Source: Verrucomicrobiales bacterium
Lineage (GTDB): Bacteria; Verrucomicrobiota; Verrucomicrobiia; Verrucomicrobiales; V1-33
Direction: 5' to 3'
Assembly: GCA_044239025.1 (NCBI GenBank)
Contig: JBIICE010000003.1
Location: 1 to 55,939 of the forward strand
Length of the DNA: 55,939 nucleotides
Below are positions 1,501 to 55,939 of this stretch, piece by piece (position 1 is the first letter of the stretch; each line of letters opens with the position of its first letter). Position numbers and translations under genes: made by a program. Under the pieces are notes generated by a model. The model had not been told where the DNA came from, did no database searches, and saw only the letters and a list, made by a program, of their open reading frames with translations.

Positions 1501-1605
1501 GGTAAATGGCTTCTCCCGGACTCCCCCGGAAGGAATGATGCCGGAAGGACTCGGCTGAAGCAGCTGGATAGCGCACGGCTTCCTGCCGATGCGGAGATCT
1601 GCGGC

Positions 1606-2580: not shown

Positions 2581-2730
2581 GGTTGATAGTTGCAGCCCGT
2601 CACCACGGTGCCGGATTCCCCGCGCTCACCACGGTTCCCCCGAGCCTCCGCCATGGTGCCCATCCTCGCCTGCAGCCGCATTCCGTCATCCTCTGCCATA
2701 GCTGTCATTCCCGCATCGTCATGGTTCCTT

Positions 2731-3996: not shown

Positions 3997-4121
3997 GCGT
4001 CTCTGCCATGTGATGGTGTGCGGGAAAGCCTTTCCGGTTCCCAGGATGGCCGAACCCCGGTGCAGCGCGGTCCTGCGGGCTGAATGGAAACCTTTTTGCC
4101 GACGATGGATACCGCGTTCGC

Positions 4122-5195
4122 TTACGGGTTTCCCGAGAGCTGCAGCCAGTCCGGATGGGCTTCCGCATGCCGGGCGATTTCCTCGAAGATGCTTTCCGGC
4201 GTGCGGGCCGGAGCCCATTCCCAGCACTGCCGCGCAAGGGCTGAATCGAGAACCACCCACGGAAGATCAAATCGCCGGGGTGAGGGATCGGACGAAACAG
4301 GATGCGGGCCAAATCGGGCATCGCACCAGTCGGTCAGCTGCTTTAGCGACCGCGCGGAATCCATCCCCCCGGATGCATTCACGATCCGCGGCTTCGAACT
4401 ATCGGAGCCGGCGGCCATCTGTTTGCGCAGCAACGGCACGAGATCCTCCGGATGCAGGCAGTCCCGGACCTGATGCCCCCCGCCATCAAAGCCAATGTAC
4501 CGCAGCGGACGCCGTCGCAGATGGGAATTGATCCAAAAGGCAAAAATTCCCTGATCGGCGCGACCGAACTGCCCCGCCCCGGCAAGCACCCCGCAGCGGT
4601 TTACATAAACCGGGAATCCGTTAGTCTCTCCGTATTCCAGCGCGAGGACCTCACTGGCAATTTTCGTGGCCCCGTAAAGAGAAACCGGTGCAGCGGTGCT
4701 GAATGCTTCGCTGATCCCTGCTGCAGACACCCCCGGAGGCAGCGGACCGTCCCTGCCTGGCTGATAGGCATCGCCGCGGACTGCGACATCCAGACCAGCC
4801 AGTGGCGGAATGCTGTAGACGCGACTCGTGCTCAGCAGCATGAACCCAGCCCCATCCCGCCGGCATTTCTCGAGCAGATTCACCGTACCGAGCAGGTTGT
4901 GCTCGATGAGTTGGCGGCTGGTGGTGCGTCCATCGGCCCCCGCGAGCACGCTGGGATTGGCAGCACAGTCGATGATCCAATCGACCGCGGGCAAGGCATC
5001 CACATCGCTCTGACAGCGCAGATCCCCATGGATCACAGGGATGCCCATGCGCTGAAGCCGCCGCCGATGGTGCTCACTGCCGGCACGGCTGAGATTGTCC
5101 ACCCCATGAAGGCTCGACGCCACGCCGTCGGCGCGGAGAGCGCAGGCAAGGGTTGCACCGACAAACCCAGAGGCTCCCGTAATCAGAATTCTCAT
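4122..5195 (-). CDS. NAD-dependent epimerase/dehydratase (CDP-paratose 2-epimerase/RfbE-like)
   Basis: MRILITGASGFVG Rossmann motif, LSTSRVY, YGATK (YxxxK), GHQVRD. Confidence 0.88.
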   Translation of the reverse strand: MRILITGASGFVGATLACALRADGVASSLHGVDNLSRAGSEHHRRRLQRMGIPVIHGDLRCQSDVDALPAVDWIIDCAANPSVLAGADGRTTSRQLIEHNLLGTVNLLEKCRRDGAGFMLLSTSRVYSIPPLAGLDVAVRGDAYQPGRDGPLPPGVSAAGISEAFSTAAPVSLYGATKIASEVLALEYGETNGFPVYVNRCGVLAGAGQFGRADQGIFAFWINSHLRRRPLRYIGFDGGGHQVRDCLHPEDLVPLLRKQMAAGSDSSKPRIVNASGGMDSARSLKQLTDWCDARFGPHPVSSDPSPRRFDLPWVVLDSALARQCWEWAPARTPESIFEEIARHAEAHPDWLQLSGNP

Positions 5196-5196
5196 T

Positions 5197-6246
5197 TCAC
5201 TGCTTCTGGTCATGCGCCGCAACGATCTCCCGGAAGGTTTCCGCCAGTCCCTTGGTGAGATCCCACTGCGGATAGTGATTTCTCATCTTCGAAAGGTTGG
5301 AAACGTAGCAGATGTGGTCGCCCTGGCGGTTCTGGTCGACGTACTGCCACCGCATCGGTTTTCCGGTGATTGATTCCACCAGCTGAAAGGCCTCGAGAAT
5401 GGAGATGGAATTAGCGGGACCGCCGCCAATGTTGTAGACTTCCGCAATCCTCGGTTTGGCAATGAACTGATCGATGAAACGCACCACATCCTCGCTGTGA
5501 ATGTTGTCTCTGACCTGCTTGCCCTTGTATCCGAAGACATTGTACTGTCGCTCCTCGAGGTTGCACTTAATCAGGTAGGATAGAAATCCGTGGAGCTCGA
5601 CCCCTGAGTGATTCGGCCCGGTCAGGCATCCCCCGCGCAGACAGCAGGTCGGGATGCCGAAGTACCGACCGTACTCCTGAACCATGATGTCCGCGGCCAC
5701 CTTGGATGCCCCGAAAAGCGAGTGTTTGGACTGATCGATCGAAAAGTCCTCGGGAATGCCGGCCGTGTAGGCCGGATCGGAGTACTCCCAGCGGGTCTCG
5801 GTTTCGTGCAGGGGAATCAGATTCGGGCGGTCACCATATACTTTGTTGGTGGACATGTGAACGAAGGGACTTTCTGGACAATACTGCCGGACCGCTTCCA
5901 GAAGGTTCAGCGTGCCCACCGCATTGGTTTCGAAATCATCGAAAGGTATCGCCGCAGCACGATCATGCGATGGCTGTGCTGCCGTGTGGACGATCGCCTG
6001 CGGCCGGAGTTCCCGGAGCAGGGCCAGGATACCCTGTCGGTCACGGATATCGACCTCGTGATGACTGAAGCTGCTGCCGAGCCTGTCACAGAGCCTCCGC
6101 TGATTCCAGCGGGTGTCGCCCTCGGCACCGAAGAACACGGCCCGCTGGTTATTGTCGACGCCATGCACGTGCCACCCAGCTCCAGCAAAGTAGGAAGAGA
6201 CTTCTGAGCCAATCAGCCCGGATGATCCAGTGACGAGTATGTTCAT
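5197..6246 (-). CDS. NAD-dependent epimerase/dehydratase (CDP-paratose 2-epimerase/RfbE-like)
   Basis: [47 protein letters not shown]; has FGASK at the YxxxK position. Confidence 0.9.
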
Positions 6247-8291: not shown

Positions 8292-10385
8292 TTAATCCTG
8301 CGTGTTCGTGGCGCGGTCTGCCTTAATGTAAGGGTCGTATCTGTAGTTGTAATAGTAACTATAGACCCCTGAACGCTGACGGTTCAGGATCACTCCGGCA
8401 AGCCTTCCGCCGGCCCGCGTGAGGTTCTCCAGCGCGCGTTTAACCGCCCGTCGGGGGGTGTGACCGGCCCTGACGACCAGGCAGACGGAATGCACATGCG
8501 GCAGCATGATGATGGCATCGCTGACGGAGTTCACTGGTGGGGTATCCACCACAATGCGGTCAAATTGCTGCTGCGCCAGTTCCATCATGTCACCGAAGGC
8601 CGCCTGGGCGAGAAGGTCCGCCGGTTGAGGGCTCCTGCCTCCTGCCAGGATGACCGTGAAATTGTCTACAGTGGTCTGGGAGCAGGCATCCGCGAAGGTA
8701 CACAAGCCGCTCAGATGCTCGGAAAGGCCAGGTTGCTTCTCTCCACTCCCGTCTTCCTCGGCGGGCTTGAGCGCGTCCTCCAGCACTTTCTGCTGCGATG
8801 GTCTCCGCATGTCGGCATCGATCAGGAGGGTACGCAGGCCGCGCTGGGCAAAGGCGACCGCAAGGTTGGCCGAGGTGCGGCTTTTGCCCTCACCTGGAAG
8901 TGCGCTGGTCACGAGGAAAATGCGGCGGCGGGACTCATCACCGAGAAGGCTGAGAGCGGCGCGGAGGGTTCTGTAGGCCTCTGCCTGGAGCGAGTTGCGG
9001 TCCGCAACGGCAGCGACTCCCTGACTGCGTCGCTTTTCGACGCTGTCATCCGGGACAGAAGCCAGCACCGAAATTCCCAGTTCCGACTCGAGGTGCTCCA
9101 CTGACTGGTAGGTCTGATCGAGGCGGTCGATCAGGAAAATGAGCGCCAGACCGATGGCAAGGCCGGCGAGGGCGGCTTTGGACAGCATGCTTCCGGTCCT
9201 CGACATGGGCGTCGAGGGAAGAAGGGCCGCCTCGGCGATGGTGACGGGAACGCGGTCGGCGGCCTTTTCCTTCATTCCGATTTCGGCAATCCGGTTGGTC
9301 ACTTCATTGTAGCGTTTCTGAACCGAATCGACCTCAGACATGAGAATCCGGAAAGGAACCATGACCTTGGACAGTTCCGAGTTGCCTTCGTTCACCTGGG
9401 CAATGGCTTCCTGGATCTGCTTTTCCACAAGTGCGGCCTGACTGGCACGTTCTTTGAGCAGAGGCACCGCCTCTGCCAGGAGTCTCCGGAGGGTCTCTGC
9501 GGCAGCAGCCACGTTTTCGCTGGCCTGGATGTAGCGAGGGTGCTGATCGAGGTAGCGCTTCTTGATCTGTTCGAAGACCGCTTCCTGTTCTTTGAGTTCG
9601 GAGTTCGCCTCGGCGACCTTGGGGATTCCAGCGAGGGTGCTGATCTGCAGCAGTTCCTTTTCGGAGCCTGGAGCGACGGTGTTCGCCCTGGCAAGGTCAG
9701 CTTCGATCTGTCCCCGCTGACTCCGCACGCTGAGGAGTTTATCGCTCAGCTCGGTGGCCCCGGTTCCCGGGGCTTGTCCATCCTTTTCGAGCGGGAGGTC
9801 CTTGTGCTTGAGGCGAAATTCGCTGACAGCGTTCCGCGCAGCAGTGAGTTCCGACTCCAGCCGCTTGGCCTGATCCTTCAGATAGTCGGTGGCTACTCCA
9901 CTGCGGGAACTGCGGTCAGTGGTGGAGCGGTCGAGGTAGGCTGCTACCACAGCGTTGGCAAGTTTCTGTGCCCGTACTGGATCCACATCGGAGGCAACCA
10001 CATCAATGAGCCTCGTGCGCCCGCGAACCCTGCTGGCGACCTTGTTGCGCAGCGTTTCGACGATGGCGGAATCGGTTTGTCCGCTTTTGCGCAGCTCGTC
10101 ATAGAGATCGATCTCTCGTGCCGCAGCGAGCAGCACGCCGTCGCCCATGAGGCTTTCGGCTACGGTGGACAGGTAATCGGAACCAGCCGGGTTATCTTTT
10201 TTGACGCCTTCGACTTTGAGGATCACGTCCTCCTGCTGAGCCACTTCGATAACAGCGCGGGAGGAGTAGACCGCGACTTGACGCTGCATCCAGGCGAAGG
10301 TGGACAGCATGGTGACGATCACCGCCAGCAGGATGAGCCACCAGAATCGGAAAAGCAGGAGTCTTAGTCGGTTTTTATCGATCAT
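8292..10385 (-). CDS. wzc: Polysaccharide co-polymerase / tyrosine autokinase
   Basis: Two TM helices flank a coiled coil; AEAYRTLR, Walker A TSALPGEGKS, LIDADMRRP, VVDTPP, and a C-terminal Tyr cluster YSYYYNYRYDPY. Confidence 0.93.
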   Translation of the reverse strand: MIDKNRLRLLLFRFWWLILLAVIVTMLSTFAWMQRQVAVYSSRAVIEVAQQEDVILKVEGVKKDNPAGSDYLSTVAESLMGDGVLLAAAREIDLYDELRKSGQTDSAIVETLRNKVASRVRGRTRLIDVVASDVDPVRAQKLANAVVAAYLDRSTTDRSSRSGVATDYLKDQAKRLESELTAARNAVSEFRLKHKDLPLEKDGQAPGTGATELSDKLLSVRSQRGQIEADLARANTVAPGSEKELLQISTLAGIPKVAEANSELKEQEAVFEQIKKRYLDQHPRYIQASENVAAAAETLRRLLAEAVPLLKERASQAALVEKQIQEAIAQVNEGNSELSKVMVPFRILMSEVDSVQKRYNEVTNRIAEIGMKEKAADRVPVTIAEAALLPSTPMSRTGSMLSKAALAGLAIGLALIFLIDRLDQTYQSVEHLESELGISVLASVPDDSVEKRRSQGVAAVADRNSLQAEAYRTLRAALSLLGDESRRRIFLVTSALPGEGKSRTSANLAVAFAQRGLRTLLIDADMRRPSQQKVLEDALKPAEEDGSGEKQPGLSEHLSGLCTFADACSQTTVDNFTVILAGGRSPQPADLLAQAAFGDMMELAQQQFDRIVVDTPPVNSVSDAIIMLPHVHSVCLVVRAGHTPRRAVKRALENLTRAGGRLAGVILNRQRSGVYSYYYNYRYDPYIKADRATNTQD

Positions 10386-10464
10386 GAGGCTGGTGAAAAT
10401 CAGTTATCCTGGGTGGTACGCCGGGAGCCAGAGTTTTGCTAGTGGCAAGTGGATTTCTCGGAGG

Positions 10465-11082
10465 TCAGAAGAGCCTTTCCTTGGCTTCGATGTGATCTCC
10501 GGGCGAGATACGGATGCGCTGGGCCTCTCTGCGGTCGGCAGCGTCCACCTTGATGACCGAACCGGACTTTCTGGTGATGACTACTTTGGAGTTGGCAAGC
10601 CTTGTGAAGCCGCCAGCCTGACTGATGGCATCCAGGAGGGTCAGTTCTCCGGATTCGGGGAAGTAATAGGGGCCCGGTCTTCCTACGGCACCTTCGAGAT
10701 TGAATCGTTCGCGGGTCTTTTCGAGTACCGTAACGGTAACCACTGGTTTGACGAGGAAGCCTCTGCGGAGCGCCGCCTCGATGGCAGCGGCGGCCCCTTT
10801 GACGCTGCTGCCGCTCACGGTTAATTCGCCGACGAGAGGCAGGGTGACTGTGCCATCGGGAGCCAGCCGGACCTTCGCGTCGAGTTCGGGTTCCTGGAAG
10901 ACCCTGACTTCGATCAGATCGGAGGGTTTCAGTACATAATCCAGCTTGGATGAGGAAGACAGCGGAGCGGCGGGGGCGGGCGCATCCATTTCGCTGGGCG
11001 ACGGCACTGCGGGAGGGCGAGCCTGACCCATCGCCAGAGTCGCTGATACCAGAAATGCAAAGACTTCTCCAGAAATACGCAT
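10465..11082 (-). CDS. Polysaccharide export protein (Wza-like Poly_export + SLBB domains)
   Basis: Signal peptide; YVLKPSDLIEVRVFQEPEL, DGTVTLPLVG, GAVGRPG.Y, LLDAISQAGGFT. Confidence 0.88.
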   Translation of the reverse strand: MRISGEVFAFLVSATLAMGQARPPAVPSPSEMDAPAPAAPLSSSSKLDYVLKPSDLIEVRVFQEPELDAKVRLAPDGTVTLPLVGELTVSGSSVKGAAAAIEAALRRGFLVKPVVTVTVLEKTRERFNLEGAVGRPGPYYFPESGELTLLDAISQAGGFTRLANSKVVITRKSGSVIKVDAADRREAQRIRISPGDHIEAKERLF

Positions 11083-45673: not shown

Positions 45674-48001
45674 ATGAATTTCCGTCTCGTTCCTCCATTC
45701 CTTCTGGCTTTGGCGTTTACTGCCCGGGGGATGGATCCTGTGGCGAAGGCCGATCCGTCGATTGCTGCGGATGCGCCGCCCGGGCATTCCGTGCATGGTG
45801 ACAGCTTCAATGAAGGGCCGCGGAGGAGGCTACCTCTGATTCCCGGGTGTGGCGACGTCAGTTTCCCGGTGACCTCGGCTCATCCCGAGGTGCAGGCGTA
45901 TTTCAATCAGGGGGTCGCGCAGCTGCATGGGTTCTGGTACTGGGAAGCTGAGCGCTCCTTCCGGACGGTGCTGCAGCTGGATCCGGGCTGCCTGATGGGG
46001 CACTGGGGGATGGCGATGGCGAATCTTGAGAATGAGGAGCGCGCCCGGAAGATCATCGGGAAAGTGAGCGATGAAGCGCTGCAGTCGGCGACTCCGCGGG
46101 AAAAGGCATGGATGGAGAGTGCGCGGAAATTCTTCCGTGAGAAGAAGAATGACAACGAGCGGAAGGACGCGGCGCGGAATCTGGTGAAGGATATGGAGCG
46201 GATTGCCCTGGACTATCCCGAGGACACCGAGGCCAGGGCCATGGCTGTCTGCTTTGTCTGGCGGAATCAGTACCGGCTGGGGATGGAGGCGGGCAGTCAT
46301 CTGGCGACCGATGCCCTCGCGCGTCAGGTTCTGGAGAAAAATCCTCGTCATCCGGTCCACCACTATTTGATTCATCTGTGGGATCACGAGCGGCCGAAGC
46401 AGGCATTGGAGGCAGCGGCGCAGTGCGGGCCGAGTGCTCCGGGGGTGGCGCACATGTGGCACATGCCTGGGCACATCTACAGCGACCTTGAGCGCTGGGC
46501 CGATGCGGCCTGGCAGCAGGAAGCGGCAGCGCGGGTGGATCATGCGCAGATGATCCGGCATCGGATTTTTCCGGATCAGATTCACAACTTTGCGCACAAC
46601 AGCGAGTGGTGGATCCGGAATCTCAATCATCTGGGTCAGGTGAGGAAAGCGCTCGGGATTGCGCGCAACATGATCACGATGCCGCGGATTCCGCGTTCGA
46701 AGCAGGTGGCGGACAAGCCGAACCAGGTGTTCGAGGAAGGCGGGAGCTGCTGGCAGTATGGCCGCAACCGGCTGCTGGAGACCCTGCTGCGCTGGGAACT
46801 GTGGGATGAGATTCAGGCGCTGGAGGGATCAGTATATCTGCTGCCCGGAAAGGAGTTCGAGGATCAATGGAAGCCGGAGCAGCTCCTGGCCCTGGCGTGC
46901 TACGGGAAGGGAGATGCGGTGAATGGGAGACGGTGGCTGGCAAAGCTCGAGGAGCGGCAGGCGGGAGCCGAGCGGGAGAGGGCGCAGGCCGTGGCGGCTG
47001 CCGAGGAGAAGGCCCGTGGGGAGAAGAAGAAGGAAGAAGAGGTGAAGAAGGCCGGCGAGGAAGCCGGGAGAGAGGCCGGCAAGCGGGTCAATCAGCTGCA
47101 GTATCCAGTGCGCGAACTGCAGGTGCGGGATCACCTCGCGAACGGGCGGATGGAGGAGGCGCGTCCCCTGATGGCTGAGCTGAAGGAAGTTCCCGAGCAC
47201 CGCATGGCGATGCTGCATCTGGCCCTCGGGGACCGGGACAAGGCAGTGGATGTGGCGAAAGGTTTTGCGGAACGGTCGCCGCGGCATGCGCAGCCGATGG
47301 CGCTGCATGCGTGGCTGCTGTGGGAGGCCGGCAAGCGGGACGAGGCGCTCGCGGTTTTCGGGAAGCTCCGTGAAGTGGCGGCTGTGGCGGATCCGGGACT
47401 TCCGGTTCTGGCGAGGCTCCAGCCCGTCGTGGAGGCGGCGGGATGCGGAGCGGAATGGCGTCTGCCACCGCCGCCGCCGGGTGATCTTGGGGGGCGGCCG
47501 GATCCGGGCAGTCTGGGGCCCATGGAATGGCATCCGTGGGATGCTCCGGCGTGGAGCGCACTGGATGCGGCGGGAGCGGCCGTGGAAAGCGGCCAGCTCA
47601 AGGGGAAGGCGCATGTCCTGATTTTCTTTCTGGGGAATGCCTGCACGCACTGCAATCAGCAGATCAAGGCCTTTGCGGATCAGCAGCAGCGCTTCGCGGA
47701 GGCGGGGCTTCCGGTTCTGGCGATCAGCACGGACCCGCCGGCTGAGGTGGCGGCGACCGGCAATCCGCCGCCGTTTCCGGTGTATTCCGGGGCCGACGGC
47801 AAGTCCTTCCGCGCCTTCGATGCGTGGGATGAATTCGAGGACAAACCACTGCACGCGACCTGTCTGATTGATGCGTCCGGAAAGGTGCGGTGGCAGCATG
47901 TGAGCTACGAACCGTTCATGCTGCCTGAGTTTCTGCTGGAAGAGGCGCAGCGGCTGCTGCGGGTTCCGGGGGTCCCGGGGGAGGGTGTGGCGGTGCGCTG
48001 A
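45674..48001 (+). CDS. Secreted His-motif TPR protein fused to an AhpC/TSA-like redoxin domain
   Basis: Signal peptide; QAYFNQGVAQLHGFWYWEAERSF, HHYLIH, HMWHMPGHIY; C-terminal FFLGNACTHC and LIDASGKVRWQ. Confidence 0.85.
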   Translation: MNFRLVPPFLLALAFTARGMDPVAKADPSIAADAPPGHSVHGDSFNEGPRRRLPLIPGCGDVSFPVTSAHPEVQAYFNQGVAQLHGFWYWEAERSFRTVLQLDPGCLMGHWGMAMANLENEERARKIIGKVSDEALQSATPREKAWMESARKFFREKKNDNERKDAARNLVKDMERIALDYPEDTEARAMAVCFVWRNQYRLGMEAGSHLATDALARQVLEKNPRHPVHHYLIHLWDHERPKQALEAAAQCGPSAPGVAHMWHMPGHIYSDLERWADAAWQQEAAARVDHAQMIRHRIFPDQIHNFAHNSEWWIRNLNHLGQVRKALGIARNMITMPRIPRSKQVADKPNQVFEEGGSCWQYGRNRLLETLLRWELWDEIQALEGSVYLLPGKEFEDQWKPEQLLALACYGKGDAVNGRRWLAKLEERQAGAERERAQAVAAAEEKARGEKKKEEEVKKAGEEAGREAGKRVNQLQYPVRELQVRDHLANGRMEEARPLMAELKEVPEHRMAMLHLALGDRDKAVDVAKGFAERSPRHAQPMALHAWLLWEAGKRDEALAVFGKLREVAAVADPGLPVLARLQPVVEAAGCGAEWRLPPPPPGDLGGRPDPGSLGPMEWHPWDAPAWSALDAAGAAVESGQLKGKAHVLIFFLGNACTHCNQQIKAFADQQQRFAEAGLPVLAISTDPPAEVAATGNPPPFPVYSGADGKSFRAFDAWDEFEDKPLHATCLIDASGKVRWQHVSYEPFMLPEFLLEEAQRLLRVPGVPGEGVAVR

Positions 48002-49926: not shown

Positions 49927-50036
49927 CGCGGACAGCCTGTCTGGCCCTCTGATAACTGTTAGAATGGGGCGCTGCGCCCATTGCGCATCATAAATCTCCC
50001 CAATTCCTGCGGTTACACTAGTTCTAGGGATAGCAG

Positions 50037-50080
50037 ATGATCTGTTTATCATTGACCTTGAGAGCAGTGATCACTATCAG
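50037..50080 (+). promoter_or_regulatory. Candidate sigma70 promoter with palindromic operator sites for the MCO operon
   Basis: TTGACC(50052)-N17-TATCAG(50075) in an AT-rich gap; ATGAT-N6-ATCAT at 50037-50052; AGTGATCACT palindrome at 50066-50075. Confidence 0.4.
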
Positions 50081-50229
50081 GGCGAGTTTTCTTTGAAGTT
50101 CGCGGCCGAGGTTTGTGACCGTTTCCGTGAAAGCAGACGGGGGCACCCATCTCTTGCATGGGGTGGTGCACCGGACTTGTGGGCCCTGTCCTGCGGGCGT
50201 CAGAGATATCCTGATTTCCCTGTATACCC

Positions 50230-53200
50230 ATGAACGCCAGCCGACGAAATTTTCTGCAGACAGCCGCGGCGGGAGTGGCCGCGGCGGCCCATCCACTGAC
50301 TGCTGCCGATCCCTATGCGCCCGCCGAACCGGGTCTCGCGGGCCAGTGGTTTGCGAAAGGGCGGCAGCACATTCTTCCGAAGTGGGCTTTTGATGGGTAT
50401 CGGCCGACTCCCGGGGTGGCGGCCAATCCGGCGCGGTTGCTGGCCTTTCCGGCGACGCCGGCATGGGTGAGCGACGCCCCGTGGACCGCGCAGCGGGGGA
50501 ATGCGCAGGCATTCGGCGATGGAAGCGGGGCGCCCGGGAAGTCCTTTCATGGGATTGCCGCGGAATGGAACGGCGTGCTGATCGGAGGGAATGCGCCTGG
50601 CAAGACCGCGTGGGAAACGATGAAGGAGCGGGTTCTGCCGACAAGGGTATCCGAGTACAAGGCGGGTCCGCTGGACACGGCGAAACGGAACTGGGCGGCC
50701 TATGATGACCGGGTGCGCTGCTACCGGATTCCGGTGCAGGAAGTGCTCGCTCCCCTGCATCCGGAGGCTCCGCATCCGGCGCTGCTGTATGGGTATGCGG
50801 GAATCGTTCCGGGTCCGACCTTCCGATTCCGCCATGGCATGCCGGTGGTGGTTCGTTTCGACAACCAGCTGCAGACCGAGATCTCAGTCCACCATCATGG
50901 CGGACACAATCCGTCGCACAGCGATGGCTTTCCCTCTTTCTACGCGCTGCAGGGAAAAGCCCGGGATTACCTTTATCCCAACATTCTTCCCCTCCGCCAG
51001 AACGAGGGCGATGCGGAAATGGACTATGGCGAAGGCCAGTCCACCACGTGGTACCACGACCATGCGCTGGACGCGACAGCCTTCAACGTGTCGCATGGCC
51101 TGGCGGGCTTCGCACTCTGGTTTGACGAACTGGAGCTGAAGCTGATACGTGATGGCGTGCTGCCTGGCCTTGGGGCGGTTTCGGCTGTCGAGGGCACCAT
51201 TTCCGCGGCGGAGTACAAAGCCTGGGTGGATGGCTGGAAAGAGCTGTACACGGACCGGGGTCCGCTCTCGCTTGAGTGGGCGGCGCTGATGGTGAAGGCC
51301 GGAGTGGTGCCGCGCGAGTCGGCGCTCCCATCATACCGTCCCGCAGCGGGGGACGCGCAGAAGGTGGACGCGGCGGCGCGGGAGGGCACTGGGCGGGGTT
51401 TCTATCACCTGCGGCCCGGGAAGGGTGAGCCGGGGGTGGGCACACCGTACTTCAATCCCTACGACCTGCCCATCGTGCTCCAGGACCGCATCATCAGCCG
51501 GACAACTGGCCAGATTGTGTATGACACGGACGGTCACAACGGCTACATCGGAGACATACAGCTGGCCAATGGCCGCCCATGGCCGGCCTTGCGGGTCAAA
51601 AAGCGGAAGTACCGGCTGCGGCTGCTGGATGGATCGAACGCGCGGATTTACCGGCTGCGGTTTCTGGATGGTCAGACCTTCCGGCTGAAACCCACTCCCG
51701 ACGGCATGCTGGAGCCGGATCGGATACCGGCCGGGACCCTCGAGGCGCGCTCCATGGATTTCTTCCGGATCGGGAAGGATTCGTGGCTGTGGCCCTCGCC
51801 CCGCCGCATGAAGTCGGTCCTGCTGAACATGGCGAACCGGGCGGACGTGGTGGTCGATTTCCGGGAATGGTACGAAAAGGCGAAGGCGGCGGGCCGACTC
51901 AATGCAGACGGTCACGCAGAATATTACCTCGTGAATACCATGCCGCAGTATGACGGGCGTGGTCCCAAGGGACCTCTGGCGGAAGACGCCGGGGACCCTC
52001 AGGTTTTTCCGCTGCCCTTCCAGCTCAATGGAGCCAATCCGGTCACGGCAGCCATGGTGGCGGCTGGGGTGGTTCCGGGTGCACTGCTCGGCGACGGAGC
52101 CGGCGGCCAGATGACAGAACTGGAGCAGCCTGTGGGGCTGATCCGTTTCATCATCGAGGACGATGAGGGAGAGGGACCAGACGCCCCTGAATGGCGCGGG
52201 GAGACGACGCTGCTGCGGCCGCGCCACGCGATCCGGGATGACGAGGTAATGGCGGTGCGGGAATTCGTCTTCGAACGCGGCAAGGGAGCCTGGATGGTAA
52301 ACGCGCGCTTCTACGACCCAACGATTTCGAACGCCAGTCCGGTCATTGGGATCAAGGGTCAGAAATTCCGGGTGCCGGACGGCAGCAAAGAGGAGGCGCA
52401 GCGGGCGGAAAAGGAATCGCTGACCTATGCCGAGGAGTGGATTCTCCGGAATGGTGGCGGTGGCTGGTGGCATCCGATCCACATTCACCTCGAGGGGCAT
52501 CAACTGGTCGGCTACGAAAAGGATTTTCCGGCCGATGGGCTGATTGATGCCGATGGGGTCCTCGGGGCTCCGGCCCAGGCAGCCATGGCTCCACTGCCGG
52601 CATGGCCGGAGCTGGTGGGTCGTTTCGGGCTCGATACGCTGCGTGCACCGCAGATCACCAATCCGATTCGGGACATGCTCATCAATCCGCGTCCGGTCCA
52701 TCTGACCGAGGAATTCCGGAAGCGGAATCCCTCCTTCCGGGTAGCCCTCGCCTCGCCGCATCCGGGAGCATCGCTTTTTCCGGCGCTGCGCGAAGGCGGC
52801 ATCGCTCTTGAACTGGAGAAGGCGGCCGTGCAGCCATGGAGGGCGGCCATCAACCGGATCCTTGATGCGCTCGCCGAATTCAGGAACTCGTGGGCAGGCG
52901 AGATGACCGGGAACCACGACACCCAGGCGCTGGGTCCGAACACGGTGGCGCGGATCCGCATGCGGTTCCGGACGTGGACGGGACCTTTTGTGTTTCACTG
53001 TCACAATGTCGAACACGAGGACATGCGCATGATGTTCAATTTCGAACCGGTCATGCGTCTCACGGGGCCCCAGCCCGGGAGCCGTCCCGTGCAGCCGAAT
53101 AGCCATGATCCCAACGTGGCTCCTGCCGCCCGGACGCATGGCCAGGACGTCACCGACCTTCAGACCAATGCGAATGCCGTTGGTGAAATGCCATGGGAGA

Positions 53201-53301
53201 AGCGCGACGGATTTCCGCATTTCCACGAGGAACCGGTACCCTTCACCCCAGTCGACCGGGTCGCGGACCCGCTCATCAAACCCCGTCCTCAGCAGCAGTA
53301 A
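50230..53301 (+). CDS. Tat-exported multicopper oxidase (bilirubin oxidase/CotA-like), unusually large
   Basis: SRRNFL Tat motif; all four Cu motifs present: HHH (50890), WYHDH (51049), HPIHIH (52471), HCHNVEHEDMRM (52996). Confidence 0.93.
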   Translation: MNASRRNFLQTAAAGVAAAAHPLTAADPYAPAEPGLAGQWFAKGRQHILPKWAFDGYRPTPGVAANPARLLAFPATPAWVSDAPWTAQRGNAQAFGDGSGAPGKSFHGIAAEWNGVLIGGNAPGKTAWETMKERVLPTRVSEYKAGPLDTAKRNWAAYDDRVRCYRIPVQEVLAPLHPEAPHPALLYGYAGIVPGPTFRFRHGMPVVVRFDNQLQTEISVHHHGGHNPSHSDGFPSFYALQGKARDYLYPNILPLRQNEGDAEMDYGEGQSTTWYHDHALDATAFNVSHGLAGFALWFDELELKLIRDGVLPGLGAVSAVEGTISAAEYKAWVDGWKELYTDRGPLSLEWAALMVKAGVVPRESALPSYRPAAGDAQKVDAAAREGTGRGFYHLRPGKGEPGVGTPYFNPYDLPIVLQDRIISRTTGQIVYDTDGHNGYIGDIQLANGRPWPALRVKKRKYRLRLLDGSNARIYRLRFLDGQTFRLKPTPDGMLEPDRIPAGTLEARSMDFFRIGKDSWLWPSPRRMKSVLLNMANRADVVVDFREWYEKAKAAGRLNADGHAEYYLVNTMPQYDGRGPKGPLAEDAGDPQVFPLPFQLNGANPVTAAMVAAGVVPGALLGDGAGGQMTELEQPVGLIRFIIEDDEGEGPDAPEWRGETTLLRPRHAIRDDEVMAVREFVFERGKGAWMVNARFYDPTISNASPVIGIKGQKFRVPDGSKEEAQRAEKESLTYAEEWILRNGGGGWWHPIHIHLEGHQLVGYEKDFPADGLIDADGVLGAPAQAAMAPLPAWPELVGRFGLDTLRAPQITNPIRDMLINPRPVHLTEEFRKRNPSFRVALASPHPGASLFPALREGGIALELEKAAVQPWRAAINRILDALAEFRNSWAGEMTGNHDTQALGPNTVARIRMRFRTWTGPFVFHCHNVEHEDMRMMFNFEPVMRLTGPQPGSRPVQPNSHDPNVAPAARTHGQDVTDLQTNANAVGEMPWEKRDGFPHFHEEPVPFTPVDRVADPLIKPRPQQQ

Positions 53302-53322
53302 ACCGCGACGCTCCGACACCGC

Positions 53323-53940
53323 ATGCAAACGCTCCTCACATCACTGCTGACCGCCCTTGCCGGGGCTGGACAGAAACCCGCGCGGGCACGGCGCTCCGAT
53401 CTTTTTGCGGATACGGAGGTGACCGATCAATTTGGCCGCCGCCATCGCTTCCGCACGGACCTTGTGCGTGACCGGGCCGTGATCATCAACACGATGTTCA
53501 CCGTCTGCCGGGGAAGTTGTCCGGGTACCAGCGAGACGCTGCAGCGTCTGCGGGAACCGCTGGGACGGGTCTTCGGAAAGCGTGTCACTCTGCTGTCGCT
53601 CTCCCTTGATCCAGCGAGGGACAATCCCGAGGTGCTGCGGAAGTATGCCGGGCTTTACGGGGCCGGCGAACCAGCACCGCCTGGGCAGCCTGAATGGCAC
53701 TTTCTGTCGGCGGGAGAGAAAGAGACGGAGGTGCTGCGCCGCTCGCTGGGGTTCTATGATCTGAATGCGCGCATTGATGGAGACATCACGCGGCATGCCG
53801 CGCTCCTGCTGTTTGGGAACGACCGGGCGAACCGATGGTCGACCTCGCCGTCGCAGATCCGCGACGGGCTCATCTGGGAACCGCTGCGGCGAGTCCTTGG
53901 CGACACGCCGGCAGAACGATTCGGGATCGAGGAAGGCTGA
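53323..53940 (+). CDS. SCO1/SenC-family copper chaperone
   Basis: DQFG, FTVCRGSCP (CxxxC), SLSLDPARDNPEVLRKY, WHFL, conserved His (RHAA). Confidence 0.9.
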   Translation: MQTLLTSLLTALAGAGQKPARARRSDLFADTEVTDQFGRRHRFRTDLVRDRAVIINTMFTVCRGSCPGTSETLQRLREPLGRVFGKRVTLLSLSLDPARDNPEVLRKYAGLYGAGEPAPPGQPEWHFLSAGEKETEVLRRSLGFYDLNARIDGDITRHAALLLFGNDRANRWSTSPSQIRDGLIWEPLRRVLGDTPAERFGIEEG

Positions 53941-53958
53941 ACCATTTACGCTGCTGAT

Positions 53959-55939
53959 ATGAAATTTCTGACTTCTGCCGTTCTCCTGTTATTGCTTGGA
54001 CCAGCGGCGGCGCAGCTTCCAGCTGATCAGGTGCGGGCCGCGACCAACAAGGCACACCTTGTGGGACACGAGGACGAGGCACTGCTCGCCCGCATCGAGG
54101 ATGCGCTTGCCACCTGGGATCCGCGCAATCTCACGAGTCCCTACGTTAAGGAAATGCAGACCGACCGCGGGAAGAAGCACGCCCTGCGGCGCCCTGATCT
54201 GGCTGAATTCATCGCAGATCCGGATGCGGCGCTGGCTCTCGGGAAGGCTCTCTTCTGGGAGATGCGCGCGGGCAGCGATTATGGGGCGAGGGGCGTCACC
54301 CAGGCCGGCACGGAAATCGTCTTCGGAACAGCCTGTGCCTCGTGTCACTACCGATTCGGAGCCGATGCCCGGAACCGGAACACATCTGCCATGGCACTGC
54401 AGGCGTGGGAAACCTTTGTTCAGGAACGGAATCTTTCCGCGGACCAGCCCGATGACGTGCCTTTTGCGCAGCGCAGCCGCAAGTATGATCCGGCAGCGGA
54501 TGGCAACGTGAGCCGGAACGCCTGGGAATTCCAGAAGACCGCCAACAGTCACCGCCTTGTCGGCTCGCAGGGAGTCATACTGCGCAAATTCGCTGGCCTC
54601 CGGGCGGATGGCAGTGAGATTTCCGGGCTTCTGCCCGCGACCCCGACGGTCAAGGGATACCGGGATATGTTTGCGGTGGGTGGCGTGGTTTCCCCTGACG
54701 GAGCAAACCGGACGCGGCAGATCACACGGCGCAATTCACCGACGGTCATCAATTCCGTTTTCGCAGACCGCCAGTTTCATGACGGACGAGCGGAATCAAC
54801 CTTCAACGGCTATTCGATCTTCGGGGATTACGACAAGCGGGTCATTCTCAAGAAGGCATCCTTCACGCGGAACGCGGATGGATCGTTCCAGGTGAGTTCC
54901 TTTCATCCTGCGACCGTGGCGATTCCGCTGGCCTCGCTGGCCTCGCAGGCCGTCGGTCCTGTCGTGAACGAGGTCGAGATGTCACACTACGGACGGACCT
55001 TCCATGACCTCGCGGTGAAGCTGCTGGATGCGAGGCCCCTTGCCGATCAGAAGGTAGCGGCGGGGGATTCGCTGCTGGCGGGCTATCTGGGAGGCGATGC
55101 GACGTACCGGCGGCTCATTCAGCAGGCCTTCCGGGCAGAGTGGTGGGCGGATGACGGCGAGACGCCCGCGGAGGGAGGGTTCACTCCTCTGAACCGTTAT
55201 GCCCCGATTGACCGGAGGGATCTGCCGACGCCGGTTCCGGCAGGGAGCAAGGACCGTCTCCTGATCAATAATTTCAGTCTCTTCTGGGGGCTTTCGGTGA
55301 TGCTGTACGAATCGGTACTGGTTTCGAATCAGTCACCGTTCGATGACATGCTGCGGGGCAAGGGGGATTCTGTGGAGGCCACGTGGCGGCGGTACGTGAC
55401 CGCTGAGCTGGCCCGGCTGGATGAGGGAACCCGCGTGGTGCCGGAAGAACCGAGACTCCCGGGAGCCAATGGTGGGGGTACGGAGCATCCGGACGAGGTC
55501 ATCCGGAAGGCTCAGCTGGACAAGCTGATCACGCTGAATGCGCCGCCGGTGCTGACGGGAACGGCCATGTTCCAGCGCGGCCTGCGGGTTTTTGTGCGCA
55601 ACTGTGCCGAGTGCCACGTTCCTCCCTATTTCAGCAATGCGGGTGAGGTGGAACTGGGGCCTGACATTCCGAAACCGATCGCCAAGCTGCACGGTCATGC
55701 GCTGGTGCGGACGTCGCTGGCGGATGCCTTCAAGGAGCGGCTTATTTCCGAGGGCTTCCATCCGGGTGGGGTGACCGACGCCAACCGCGGCGTTCTCGGG
55801 AACCGCCTTTATTTCTTTGATCAGGAGAGGCTCCCGGTCATCACGGGACTGGGGATTCCGCTCATGATCGAGAACATGCCCATCGATGCGGTGATGCCGC
55901 TGTCCTTCAATCAGACGACGCCCCCGCCCCGGCAGCCGC
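53959..55939 (+). CDS. Large diheme cytochrome c peroxidase/MauG-family protein (SACCP/CorB-like), 3' end outside window
   Basis: Not in the ORF track. Open frame from the ATG at 53959 to the window end (~660 aa): signal peptide, LGKALFW, CASCH (54334), RNSPTVIN, QFHDGRA, SLASQAVGP..NEVEMS, NFSLFWG..YE..LVS..SPFD, CAECH (55603). Confidence 0.9.
   Translation, partial: MKFLTSAVLLLLLGPAAAQLPADQVRAATNKAHLVGHEDEALLARIEDALATWDPRNLTSPYVKEMQTDRGKKHALRRPDLAEFIADPDAALALGKALFWEMRAGSDYGARGVTQAGTEIVFGTACASCHYRFGADARNRNTSAMALQAWETFVQERNLSADQPDDVPFAQRSRKYDPAADGNVSRNAWEFQKTANSHRLVGSQGVILRKFAGLRADGSEISGLLPATPTVKGYRDMFAVGGVVSPDGANRTRQITRRNSPTVINSVFADRQFHDGRAESTFNGYSIFGDYDKRVILKKASFTRNADGSFQVSSFHPATVAIPLASLASQAVGPVVNEVEMSHYGRTFHDLAVKLLDARPLADQKVAAGDSLLAGYLGGDATYRRLIQQAFRAEWWADDGETPAEGGFTPLNRYAPIDRRDLPTPVPAGSKDRLLINNFSLFWGLSVMLYESVLVSNQSPFDDMLRGKGDSVEATWRRYVTAELARLDEGTRVVPEEPRLPGANGGGTEHPDEVIRKAQLDKLITLNAPPVLTGTAMFQRGLRVFVRNCAECHVPPYFSNAGEVELGPDIPKPIAKLHGHALVRTSLADAFKERLISEGFHPGGVTDANRGVLGNRLYFFDQERLPVITGLGIPLMIENMPIDAVMPLSFNQTTPPPRQP

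Follow-up and report, generated by a model that had tools for sequence, protein, structure and literature searches.

Do a giant multicopper oxidase (MCO), a SCO1/SenC-family protein (SCO), and a large diheme protein encoded side by side belong to one system, and what could such a system do? The question is raised by a stretch of 55,939 nucleotides from a Verrucomicrobiales bacterium, here called the window, which is a whole contig. The three genes lie in this order on its + strand, with intergenic gaps of 21 nt (53302–53322) and 18 nt (53941–53958) (Table 1). The first-pass annotation had described three co-oriented genes with gaps of these lengths, and the ORF coordinates agree. It had also placed an AT-rich promoter region in front of them. 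The 303-nt spacer upstream of the MCO gene is a possible candidate promoter region. The claim holds weakly, the GC content being about 0.58 against 0.64 for the genome, and the site scan found neither a sigma-70-like nor a terminator-like site in the spacer.

Table 1. Positions in the window of the trio genes and of the motifs discussed in the text.
Feature	Position	Strand	Basis
Spacer upstream of MCO gene, 303 nt	49927..50229	+	between accA stop and MCO start
MCO gene, 1023 aa, three-domain type	50230..53301	+	ORF; Pfam
Twin-arginine motif S-R-R-N-F-L, residues 4–9, Tat signal	50239..50256	+	TIGR01409
MCO Cu motif 1, H221-x-H223	50890..50898	+	invariant, 20-sequence family alignment
MCO Cu motif 2, H276-x-H278 (WYHDH)	51055..51063	+	invariant, 20-sequence family alignment
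MCO Cu motif 3, W746-W747-H748-P-I-H751-I-H753	52465..52488	+	invariant, 20-sequence family alignment
MCO Cu motif 4, H923-C924-H925-xxx-H929-xxxx-M934	52996..53031	+	invariant, 20-sequence family alignment
MCO C-terminal tail (ARTHG..DVT ... GE(M/L)PWE)	53032..53298	+	tail comparison; invariant residues in family alignment
SCO1/SenC-family protein, 205 aa, without hydrophobic leader	53323..53940	+	ORF; Pfam; hydropathy
SCO Cu-binding C62-R-G-S-C66, then P67	53506..53520	+	at least 90% conserved in 70 sequences
SCO His158, third Cu ligand of Sco proteins (presumed)	53794..53796	+	invariant/near-invariant in 70 relatives
Diheme CCP_MauG-family protein, first 660 of 1061 aa	53959..55939	+	ORF open at 3' end; Pfam
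Diheme heme motif 1, C126-A-S-C-H130	54334..54348	+	invariant in diheme family alignment
Diheme His274 at inter-heme Trp position	54778..54780	+	profile alignment to 1eb7
Diheme distal pocket Q330...P334...E340	54946..54978	+	invariant in diheme family alignment
Diheme heme motif 2, C549-A-E-C-H553	55603..55617	+	invariant in diheme family alignment

Completion and conservation of the trio

Since the window is the whole contig, the diheme gene in it is incomplete and breaks off at the 3' end. Retrieval of the downstream sequence, a check proposed in the first-pass annotation, completed it. Only one contig, C152 (G000), starts with an exact 127-nt overlap to the end of the window. The reading frame goes on there at positions 128–1332 (stop codon at 1330–1332), giving a full length of 1061 aa. 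In a genome of the same genus (G003), the complete trio lies on a single contig. Its diheme protein aligns throughout residues 14–1061, at 89% identity, which supports the join. An exported diheme protein of more than 660 aa had been proposed; the join gives 1061 aa, and the protein starts with a hydrophobic (Sec-type) leader, a hydrophobic N-terminus being seen in 21 of 24 family members.

Gene order was compared from both ends. Anchored on the MCO, among the best 80 of 264 relatives in GTDB genomes, SCO is directly downstream of MCO in 41/41 close-clade loci with room, and the diheme gene is next after SCO in 36/36. Anchored on the diheme gene, in 26 loci on JGI metagenome contigs, SCO is found upstream in 22/23 loci and MCO in 20/20. 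Conserved synteny, which the first-pass annotation had proposed to look for, is seen from either side. In a count over 40 loci, MCO is present in 40, SCO in 40, and the diheme gene in 38, both misses being contigs that end early; no fourth conserved gene was found around the trio in these loci. The three proteins show the same two-tier similarity pattern. Within the same 80 relatives, the distant MCO clade keeps SCO in 19/23 loci, while the diheme gene is downstream in 3/16 and elsewhere in the locus in 5/16. Its frequent absence there indicates that MCOs of the wider kind can work without it. Across some 60 loci of Verrucomicrobiota and Planctomycetota, members of the trio hardly ever occur apart; a cultured carrier is Singulisphaera acidiphila. 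The trio is a tightly conserved, dedicated unit inherited together. Within the genus, the giant MCO was found in only 2 of 13 genomes. Lake-water metagenome runs contain the DNA of the window, and so constant a trio in Verrucomicrobia and Planctomycetes living in lakes suggests an unstudied enzyme system.

Features of the three proteins

The MCO contains large insertions and ends in a conserved tail of 89 aa. It matches Cu-oxidase_3 (38.0 bits; cut-off 21) and Cu-oxidase_2 (40.7 bits; cut-off 20.4) of Pfam. The Pfam TAT_signal match is weak, and NCBIfam TIGR01409 gives 18.2 bits against a cut-off of 16.7. Of 26 family members, 25 have the RR motif, and the other one is N-terminally truncated. 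With all four copper motifs invariant in 20 sequences, the description as a 1023-aa Tat MCO with intact Cu ligands is borne out. Among solved structures, bilirubin oxidase (2xll) is the closest, at E 9e-30, with CotA at about 1e-24. Aligned residue by residue to 2xll, W746 falls on Trp396; H748 lies two residues further on. Related MCOs from loci in which no diheme gene is seen also have an equivalent of W746, and so this residue is not specific to the trio. Met makes up 2.2% of the MCO and the densest 30 aa hold 4 Met, corresponding to the T1 motif; no Met-rich region was found by residue composition over stretches of 30 aa. The top NCBIfam match, which is sub-threshold, is CueO (104 bits; cut-off 525).

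The SCO matches SCO1-SenC of Pfam (37.7 bits; cut-off 22.8). C62xxxC66 is invariant also in a further SCO alignment, and His158 is at what we take to be the third Cu ligand position of Sco proteins. A hydrophobic leader is seen in 0/45 close-clade SCOs versus 16/18 distant-clade SCOs. The absence of a signal peptide is judged by hydropathy alone (threshold 2.0), and the SCO of the window is borderline with a maximum of 1.82. The close-clade SCO is probably not an ordinary envelope-anchored chaperone; an encounter with the MCO in the cytoplasm, ahead of Tat export or in the course of it, is more likely. Of the envelope SCO chaperone proposed in the first-pass annotation, the Cu triad and a predicted docking on the MCO support the chaperone part, while the missing leader argues against the envelope part.

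The docking was predicted, as had been suggested, for the planctomycete MCO and SCO from one locus (L039; 785 and 201 aa, with their own alignments), which are 50% identical to the MCO and SCO of the window, whose own proteins are larger. The median ipSAE for this pair is 0.88, against 0.00 for the best of 3 controls; in calibration, the ipSAE mark was reached by 58/80 solved complexes and 2/110 mismatched pairs. At least 57% of contacts agree among the runs, and the pLDDT of the partners is at least 83. Residues of the MCO in the predicted interface are more conserved (0.83) than average (0.67), and the interface takes in D931-M932-R933 of Cu motif 4 and W989 and E990 of the tail. The SCO copper site in this interface faces the MCO surface beside the T1 and trinuclear ligand motifs. 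Docking of the close-clade SCO on the MCO is a high-confidence prediction. Together with the missing leader, this suggests cytoplasmic Cu loading or Tat co-export. Both the leaderless close-clade SCO and its predicted docking go beyond the first-pass annotation.

The diheme protein matches CCP_MauG of Pfam (54.7 bits; cut-off 25.6), and it is the only PF03150 gene product in this 94%-complete genome. The top PDB matches of its C-terminal part are BthA (6nx0) and MauG. By homology, heme motif 1 would hold the peroxide-reactive heme and heme motif 2 the six-coordinate heme. Q330, P334, and E340 align with Q104, P108, and E114 of Pa CcP. Tyr944 aligns with Tyr294 of MauG and with Met275 of Pa CcP. 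His274 aligns with Trp94 of Pa CcP (1eb7), equivalent to Trp93 of MauG, and at this inter-heme position 23 of the 24 family members have His and one has Tyr. A Trp two residues before the second CxxCH, presumably the place of Trp199 in MauG, is absent here. The protein can be called MauG/BthA-like at its six-coordinate heme, with a Tyr in the place of the heme-ligating Tyr of both enzymes, and is unlike MauG and bCcP with respect to the inter-heme Trp.

Possible function of the trio

The trio could be a self-contained oxidase module in which SCO loads the MCO, the diheme protein acts on the MCO, and the MCO oxidises an extracytoplasmic substrate. This reading is favoured tentatively, and its chance of being right is put at a little under one half. 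The leaderless SCO would bind the folded MCO in the cytoplasm and supply copper. It would then either be released or be exported with the MCO via Tat as a passenger. In the periplasm, the MauG/BthA-type diheme protein would be brought by H2O2 to a high-valent state and act on the MCO, most likely by oxidising an aromatic residue, which would finish or tune the enzyme. Such a step would parallel the action of MauG on methylamine dehydrogenase, that of MbnH on MbnP, and the proposal for mtoX-SCO1-mauG. The mature MCO would oxidise an extracytoplasmic substrate, which could be a metal ion or a phenolic. We infer both this substrate and the target of the diheme protein. Two AlphaFold models were both poor (mean pLDDT 55 and 52). 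The inter-heme Trp is important in MauG; its replacement by His and the missing Trp199 equivalent count against a maturase. The Tyr ligand is no proof of a maturation role either, because BthA with the same ligand is a competent peroxidase.

It might be speculated, although this is somewhat unlikely, that the diheme protein is a working peroxidase and not a maturase. It would clear H2O2 around the MCO or its substrate, or take electrons from the blue copper of the MCO, making O2 and H2O2 parallel oxidants of one substrate. Small cupredoxins donate electrons to ordinary bCcPs. The Gln/Pro/Glu pocket and both hemes are intact, and as the sole CCP_MauG gene of the genome, it may double as the periplasmic peroxidase of the cell. 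BthA, with a His/Tyr heme and Ser257 for the bridging Trp, is described as turning over H2O2 (PMC6405878). However, a housekeeping enzyme is not expected behind MCO-SCO in every locus with room (36/36 and, for the MCO, 20/20), nor is it expected to be missing from most genomes of the genus. Besides, Tyr here takes the place of the Met ligand that bCcP hemes accepting electrons typically have, and a bCcP is only a third as large as this protein. Chance adjacency of three independently acting genes is hardly credible. The lack of promoter or terminator signals delimiting an operon in the site scan would fit it, but it is contradicted already by the synteny counts, which show order and orientation preserved across two phyla in practically all loci with room, by the gaps of 18–21 nt, and by the confidently predicted MCO-SCO interface.

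The MCO could also be an extracellular oxidase that acts on Mn(II), Fe(II), or iodide and has SCO as its copper supplier or as a subunit; the diheme protein would then assist in the second electron step or in dealing with reactive oxygen by-products. MCO+SCO1 adjacency is the hallmark of McoA/MnxG (PMC13689576) and of IoxA with IoxB/D/F (PMC9415286), Mn oxidation in Pseudomonas is reported to require cytochrome c maturation genes (PMC13689576), MCO-SCO-MCO arrays in some distant relatives resemble ioxA-B-C, and the DNA is present in lake-water metagenome runs. This reading is nevertheless unlikely: the likeness to McoA, MnxG, and IoxA is one of gene order as described, the nearest solved relatives, bilirubin oxidase and CotA, act on organic substrates as well, and no secretion or outer-membrane genes are conserved beside the trio in 40 loci. 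A role in copper homeostasis, with a CueO-like cuprous oxidase, Sco as copper buffer, and a peroxidase that counters oxidative stress caused by copper, is improbable. CueO is the top NCBIfam match, and a CopA-like P-type ATPase is encoded two genes upstream in a small-form relative (G037, L015), but the CueO score is far under the family cut-off, the MCO is without a Met-rich region, and the 40 loci share no conserved gene for a copper regulator, CopA, or a CusF-like protein.

Comparison with known systems

No description of an MCO-SCO-giant-diheme trio was found in the literature searched, which agrees with the first-pass annotation as far as the full trio is concerned. Pairs of MCO and SCO1 are known precedents, being contained in mcoA/mnxG operons (PMC13689576). 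In the McoA/MnxG and IoxA systems, as in the trio, the gene for an exported MCO has one or more SCO1/SenC genes behind it, whose products are proposed to be its copper chaperones (PMC13689576, PMC9415286). These reviews name no diheme CCP_MauG gene in the operons and call the function of IoxE unclear (PMC13689576, PMC9415286). Compared by description, the MCO of the trio differs in its 1023 aa and its own insertions and tail. In bilirubin oxidase of Myrothecium verrucaria (2xll), Trp396 forms an adduct with His398 at the T1 copper (PMC6757100), and in the alignment this Trp is kept as W746. Unlike bilirubin oxidase and CotA, the MCO of the trio is twice the length, Tat-exported, bacterial, and provided with a dedicated SCO and diheme protein. 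Tat export of heterodimers has been described (PMC10924467). The trio resembles such "hitchhiker" cases in that the MCO alone bears the twin-arginine signal and the signal-less SCO is predicted to bind it; the available parts of the Tat-hitchhiker literature searched contain no Sco protein or MCO exported in this way.

MauG makes TTQ, and MbnH makes Kyn174 in MbnP (PMC11951088). The diheme protein of the trio shares with both the CCP_MauG fold family, two c-hemes, the Gln/Pro/Glu pocket, and a gene beside that of a candidate protein substrate, and with MauG also the Tyr aligned with Tyr294. MbnH (6e1c) is the best profile match of its C-terminal domain (3e-21), although the overall similarity to MauG and MbnH is low (E about 1e-6 with a single sequence). 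Its length is three times theirs: some 420 aa separate the heme motifs, and some 330 aa are inserted after heme 2. It differs from MauG in the His for Trp93 and the lack of a Trp199 equivalent. BthA of Burkholderia thailandensis (6nx0), the top single-sequence PDB match of the C-terminal part (6.6e-07), likewise has a His/Tyr six-coordinate heme and no bridging Trp (PMC6405878). It differs in its length of 477 aa, in Ser257 in place of His at the bridge, and in its restriction to Burkholderia, and the available part of its description mentions no neighbouring MCO or SCO (PMC6405878).

The closest precedent in gene order is the mtoX-SCO1/senC-mauG operon of methanethiol oxidase, described in Hyphomicrobium sp. 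VS and Ruegeria pomeroyi and conserved in many bacteria; there, SCO is proposed to be the source of Cu, and the MauG homologue to form a Trp-derived cofactor (PMC5739008). As in the trio, the genes stand operon-like in a row: that for a Cu enzyme first, then SCO1/SenC, then a MauG-like diheme gene (PMC5739008). The Cu enzyme is an SBP56 protein there and a multicopper oxidase in the trio, and the MauG homologue is sometimes fused to SCO1 (PMC5739008). The trio differs further in its diheme protein of about 1060 aa with His for the inter-heme Trp, and in its SCO without an export signal. With this operon and the MCO+SCO1 pairs as precedents, the idea of the trio is less unprecedented than the first-pass annotation stated.

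The gene trio and its completion on a second contig

Open reading frame calls and Pfam assignments confirm the three co-oriented genes that the first-pass annotation had described at the 3′ end of the window, with gaps of 21 nt between the multicopper oxidase (MCO) and SCO genes and 18 nt between the SCO and diheme genes. The window is a complete contig, and the genome (4.35 Mb, 375 contigs) is 94% complete. The sequence downstream of the window, which that annotation had proposed to retrieve, was recovered on C152, a second contig of the same assembly. C152 is the sole other contig containing the last bases of the window and overlaps its end by exactly 127 nt. The diheme frame continues on C152 to a stop codon at nucleotides 1330–1332, giving a protein of 1061 aa. 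In G003, a genome of the same genus, all three genes are on one contig, with identities of 93% (MCO), 89% (SCO) and 89% (diheme, residues 14–1061). Because of the overlap and this single-contig trio, the join is considered sound. The start of C152 is covered by short contigs from other samples (runs X2–X4), and one X2 record extends 289 nt past its left end. This coverage is consistent with the join.

Positions of the trio genes and of neighbouring or related features
Feature	Location	Strand	Description
MCO ORF	window 50230–53301	+	1023 aa; Pfam Cu-oxidase_3 and Cu-oxidase_2
SCO ORF	window 53323–53940	+	205 aa; Pfam SCO1-SenC
Diheme ORF	window 53959 to contig end	+	660 aa, still open; Pfam CCP_MauG
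Amphipathic SCO N-terminus	window 53323–53390		example from the window
TPR-AhpC gene	window 45674–48001		775 aa
SIR2-like gene	L001 (G000:C152) 1431–2537		Pfam SIR2_2
CHAT-domain gene	L001 (G000:C152) 2562–5762		1066 aa
Fourth ORF	L038 1800–2957	-	
Fourth ORF	L059 16579–17559	+	
Fourth ORF	L043 3384–4643	+	
Small-form locus	L015 (G037:C9) 1583–3847 and 9546–10886		order diheme-MCO-SCO
Small-form diheme	L016 (G020:C181) 3988–6153		721 aa

The 303-nt spacer 5′ of the MCO gene had been described as an AT-rich promoter region. Its GC content is slightly reduced (about 0.58), but promoter and terminator scans gave no match upstream of the MCO gene, nor any after the diheme stop. Farther upstream, Pfam identifies accA, a LysM protein gene and a TPR-AhpC fusion, which an ORF clustering of 40 loci does not link to the trio elsewhere. 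The TPR-AhpC protein has an unusual architecture, in which an N-terminal TPR region and a Lys/Glu-rich helical stretch are followed by a C-terminal AhpC/TSA peroxiredoxin domain. It is encoded 2 kb upstream of the oxidase module and is not kept beside the module elsewhere.

Downstream of the diheme gene, C152 contains a SIR2-like gene and then a CHAT-domain gene. These are unrelated to the trio, and therefore the module ends with the diheme. The SIR2-like gene directly follows the diheme stop and matches Dsr1/ThsA in PADLOC (E 6.5e-16), and the product of the next gene combines the CHAT domain with a lipase-like alpha/beta segment. Judging from these domains, the two look like a candidate anti-phage defence pair.

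Conservation and distribution of the trio

A pattern scan with one genome per GTDB species yielded 264 MCO relatives, of which the best 80 were kept. According to their titles, these 80 are mostly from Planctomycetota, with a few from Verrucomicrobiota that include the window's nearest relatives. An MCO tree of 34 rows, made with a quick method, contains two clades, and the base of the window's clade is not settled in it. Loci were assigned to the close clade at summed tblastn bits of at least 450. Ten loci with tandem MCO genes (L075–L077, L081, L084, L085, L089, L091, L095 and L097) were moved to the distant clade by hand because their summed bits were inflated. In the close clade (47 of the best 80 loci), SCO is directly 3′ of MCO at each of the 41 loci whose contig leaves 800 nt or more, and the diheme is 3′ of SCO at each of the 36 that leave 2500 nt or more. 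In the distant clade (the other 33), SCO follows MCO at 19 of 23 loci. A diheme is elsewhere in the locus at 5 of 16 distant loci and downstream at 3 of 16, one of these three being L072, which fell into this group although its MCO, accompanied by SCO and diheme, is a truncated member of the close clade.

The reverse search started from the diheme on JGI metagenome contigs and covered 26 loci; SCO was upstream in 22 of 23 cases and MCO in 20 of 20. An internal deletion in the contig accounts for the single SCO miss. The conserved MCO-SCO-diheme synteny for which a neighbourhood search had been suggested is thus seen from both ends. The ORF clustering covered 39 of the 80 loci plus the window, with short contigs and the distant clade left out. 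Only the trio is common to its loci (MCO in 40, SCO in 40, diheme in 38). A fourth ORF of about 320–420 aa without a Pfam family is found beside the trio at 15 of the 40 loci, all planctomycete, and is absent from the window. Its position is sometimes upstream and sometimes downstream, and one copy has a weak match to a Tat signal. Three of these loci are listed in the table, and there are 12 more.

Among 40 genomes of relatives, the giant MCO (>90% identity) is present in only two of the 13 other genomes of the same genus. Small forms are seen in two relatives, G020 and G037, with an MCO of about 600 aa accompanied by SCO and a diheme of 720–800 aa. At the G037 locus, where the diheme gene comes first, a CopA-like P-type ATPase with YHS and HMBD domains is encoded two genes upstream, and the SCO ORF (446 aa) has about 220 extra C-terminal residues without a known family. 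The culturable strains Singulisphaera acidiphila DSM 18658 (locus L059) and Tautonia sp. JC769 also have the module, which is therefore directly testable.

A HMMER search with the full-length diheme against 1.84 billion representatives returned 561 proteins (representatives of 50%-identity clusters) at E ≤1e-30, a count that includes shorter relatives besides the trio form of about 1000 aa. The wider long-diheme family is therefore large. One metagenome protein, P0105 (1183 aa, contig L122), joins MCO residues ~280–773 directly to diheme residue ~248 onward. It was considered as a "Rosetta stone" fusion and rejected. The last copper motif, the whole SCO and heme 1 are missing from it, and it probably reflects a deletion or a misassembly.

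Sequence features of the three proteins

The MCO contains the four copper-ligand motifs HxH, HxH, HxxHxH and HCHxxxHxxxxM, which are invariant in all 20 members of the family alignment. It scores above the Pfam cut-offs for Cu-oxidase_3 (38.0 against 21) and Cu-oxidase_2 (40.7 against 20.4), and the nearest solved structures are bilirubin oxidase (best PDB match, E 9e-30) and CotA. On sequence criteria it can be placed among three-domain multicopper oxidases, in the bilirubin oxidase/CotA/CueO branch. The Tat signal is weak in Pfam and above the cut-off of NCBIfam TIGR01409, and 25 of the 26 family members have a twin-arginine motif. The 1023-aa Tat MCO with intact copper ligands reported earlier is accordingly upheld. 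Met-rich segments near the T1 site are typical of CueO. The MCO has no Met-rich segment (Met 2.2% overall) and scores 104 bits on NF008205 (CueO) against an NCBIfam equivalog cut-off of 525, so that identity as a CueO-type cuprous oxidase was rejected.

Compared with bilirubin oxidase and CotA (510–540 aa), the protein has an N-terminal extension, several insertions and a conserved C-terminal tail. W746, two residues before the first His of HxxHxH, aligns with Trp396 of bilirubin oxidase, which is covalently bound to the T1 ligand His398 (PMC6757100, in part). The tail and W746 were each considered as a mark of diheme-linked MCOs. Neither discriminates, because the tail (70–90 aa, ARTHG..DVT ... 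GE(L/M)PWE) is shared by the entire close clade, and the Trp occurs in every relative found, these having been retrieved with a pattern that includes the W746 motif.

The SCO protein has a PF02630 domain (37.7 bits, cut-off 22.8). Conservation across 70 sequences extends to C62, C66, P67 and H158, which are invariant in the family alignment, and the protein can be classed from these as SCO1/SenC-type, with a thioredoxin-like domain carrying CxxxC and a distal His. Another contig of the genome carries a further SCO gene, of the ordinary kind. The SCOs of the close clade have 14–27 non-hydrophobic residues before the fold. By hydropathy alone (12-residue window before CxxxC, Kyte-Doolittle mean of at least 2.0), 0 of 45 have a hydrophobic leader, and the maximum of the window's SCO is 1.82. 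By the same criterion, 16 of 18 SCOs of the distant clade have an obvious leader. The membrane anchor, lipobox or signal peptide expected of SCO1/SenC chaperones was thus not seen in the close clade by hydropathy. The first-pass annotation had proposed a dedicated envelope system; the synteny counts support the dedicated trio, and the hydropathy makes an ordinary envelope-anchored SCO improbable. Many of the leaderless SCOs start with a short amphipathic pattern, hydrophobic-hydrophobic-x-x-L-L-x-x-L, then P-P-R-x-R.

The diheme has a CCP_MauG domain (PF03150, 54.7 bits, cut-off 25.6) and the heme motifs CASCH at 126 and CAECH at 549, both invariant in the 24 members of its family alignment. 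By these features it can be assigned to the bCcP/MauG superfamily, and it is the only PF03150 gene of the genome. Attachment of c-type heme requires Sec export, with which the hydrophobic N-terminus of 21 of the 24 members agrees; the earlier description as an exported diheme of more than 660 aa fits the completed protein. The two motifs are 423 residues apart, against about 150 in solved peroxidases, and the solved peroxidases matched have total lengths of 308–345 residues. Heme 2 is followed by about 330 inserted residues, which are variable and for the most part helical.

In a profile alignment to Pseudomonas aeruginosa CcP (1eb7), N259 corresponds to Asn79, and Q330, P334 and E340 to Gln104, Pro108 and Glu114, all of them invariant in the family. 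We take Gln, Pro and Glu to be the distal residues at the peroxide-reactive heme, and Asn to be a Ca-site residue. Q103, P107 and E113 of MauG are named in PDB titles. H274 occupies the position of 1eb7 Trp94 and MauG Trp93 (His in 23 of 24 members, Tyr in one), and an invariant Tyr (944 in the window's protein, 949 in the family member P0122) aligns with 1eb7 Met275. In canonical bacterial cytochrome c peroxidases the electron-accepting heme has His/Met ligation (Met275 in 1eb7) and a Trp stands between the hemes. Identity as such a peroxidase was rejected on these two replacements.

The segment FKTPSLRN...FY of the completed diheme aligns ungapped with MauG 262–294, which puts Tyr944 on MauG Tyr294. 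By this alignment the six-coordinate heme site is of the MauG/BthA type, with Tyr as the putative axial ligand. The best solved relatives of the C-terminal part are BthA and MauG, and by profile that domain matches MbnH best. MauG Trp199, the surface Trp of hole hopping, is located two residues before the second CxxCH, where 0 of 24 family members have Trp. Equivalents of MauG Trp93 and Trp199 were thus not found in these 24 members. According to excerpts of PMC6405878, the His/Tyr heme sets MauG and BthA apart from canonical peroxidases, and MauG Trp93 is midway between the hemes, where BthA has Ser. The small-form diheme of G020 retains the inter-heme Trp (NFWDGRA) together with the FY Tyr, and the change from Trp to His is therefore specific to the clade of about 1000 aa.

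AlphaFold2 models of the window's MCO (20-row alignment, mean pLDDT 52.1) and of the diheme P0122 (24-row alignment, 55.3) are too poor for domains or interfaces. A Foldseek search of the PDB with the diheme model returned no match at E ≤0.001, and the non-significant top rows are MauG chains.

A predicted MCO-Sco complex and relations to known systems

Structure prediction on pairs, as suggested by the first-pass annotation, was run for MCO and SCO of the planctomycete locus L039 (785 and 201 aa, each with its own alignment), which are about 50% and 42% identical to the window's proteins. The median ipSAE is 0.88 and the best of three controls 0.00, on a calibration, only rough with user alignments, in which 58 of 80 solved complexes reach the mark, as do 2 of 110 mismatched pairs. 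Run-to-run contact agreement is at least 57% and partner pLDDT at least 83. We know of no solved Sco-MCO complex, and it therefore seems unlikely that the prediction merely reproduces a known structure. SCO is thus predicted to dock on the MCO. In window numbering, the MCO side of the interface comprises E217, L240, D281, T426, Q428, H436, R577, F694, D696, P697, D931-M932-R933 inside the T1 motif and W989-E990 in the tail. The mean conservation of these positions is 0.83, compared with 0.67 over the full protein. On SCO, the contacts fall on the residue within CxxxC, on the segment surrounding H158 and on the C-terminus, and R171 and R190 are among the predicted contacts. The amphipathic SCO N-terminus is outside the confident part of the interface. 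The twin-arginine motif on the MCO only, the leaderless SCO (by hydropathy) and the predicted complex would suit a Tat hitchhiker pair, in which one of two stably bound partners carries the signal for both.

The trio is a conserved unit whose three proteins have different targeting signals and intact cofactor sites. Sco may meet the folded MCO before export, and would then either load copper at that stage or be carried out along with the MCO. Few enzymes besides the MauG-like dihemes are known to build protein-derived cofactors by long-range oxidation. The short list of targets for these dihemes has MADH and MbnP as known ones and MopE/CorA and MtoX as probable ones. Once exported, the MCO might be acted on by the diheme in the way that MauG-family enzymes treat a protein encoded next to them: MauG on MADH and MbnH on MbnP (PMC11951088, in part), with a similar action of a MauG homologue proposed for MtoX (PMC5739008, in part). 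That the diheme matures the MCO is the favoured but tentative reading, which falls somewhat short of an even chance. The lack of the Trp93 and Trp199 equivalents in the family and the occurrence of related MCO-SCO pairs without a diheme speak against a strict MauG analogy and lower its standing. For the same reasons a role of the diheme as a peroxidase or redox partner, though unlikely, carries real weight, and BthA, with the same Tyr, is a real peroxidase in the sections available of PMC6405878.

Smaller weight is given to a metal or halide oxidase, which would be compatible with either maturation or a peroxidase role, and to copper homeostasis, against which the missing Met-rich window and the low CueO score argue. 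A joint reading is rather improbable: Sco would be a stable copper subunit that docks in the cytoplasm over the side of the MCO near T1 and is exported as a Tat hitchhiker, and the diheme, a new MauG/BthA branch with His replacing the bridging Trp, would modify an aromatic residue of MCO-Sco in the periplasm. The site could be, for example, W746-H748 at the position of the bilirubin oxidase adduct, or W989 in the tail. If so, a three-component copper/heme oxidase of a new kind would exist in freshwater Planctomycetes and Verrucomicrobia.

Sco proteins are usually pictured as active outside the cytoplasm alone, with copper reaching MCOs after export. Binding of a Tat substrate by a Sco inside the cytoplasm would alter this picture of copper loading. 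Returning to maturation, an MCO as client would add a new target class for dihemes. It could also account for the need for cytochrome c maturation genes in some MCO-dependent Mn oxidation (PMC13689576, in part). The module sits in abundant, little-studied freshwater bacteria.

The trio had been proposed to be uncharacterised, and no description of an MCO-SCO-giant-diheme trio was found in the literature searched, in which subscription journals are thinly covered; but its parts have precedents. As far as the excerpts consulted go, adjacency of MCO and SCO1 is known for McoA/MnxG (PMC13689576) and IoxA (PMC9415286). The distant relatives L081, L089, L091, L095, L097 and L075–L077 have tandem MCO-SCO-MCO(-SCO) arrays, with hydrophobic leaders on their SCOs, and in layout only these arrays resemble the published ioxA-ioxB-ioxC iodide oxidase cluster. 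Unusual traits of the trio are the leaderless Sco predicted to bind a Tat substrate, the diheme of about 1060 aa and the His at the inter-heme position. The arrangement of copper enzyme, SCO1 and mauG is known for the methanethiol oxidase MtoX (PMC5739008, in part). The trio and the mtoX operon share the order copper enzyme-SCO1/SenC-MauG-like, conserved across taxa, whereas the copper enzyme is an MCO here (by Pfam) and an SBP56/MtoX protein there. The novelty can thus be considered as a new combination, with an MCO as the copper enzyme in this layout.
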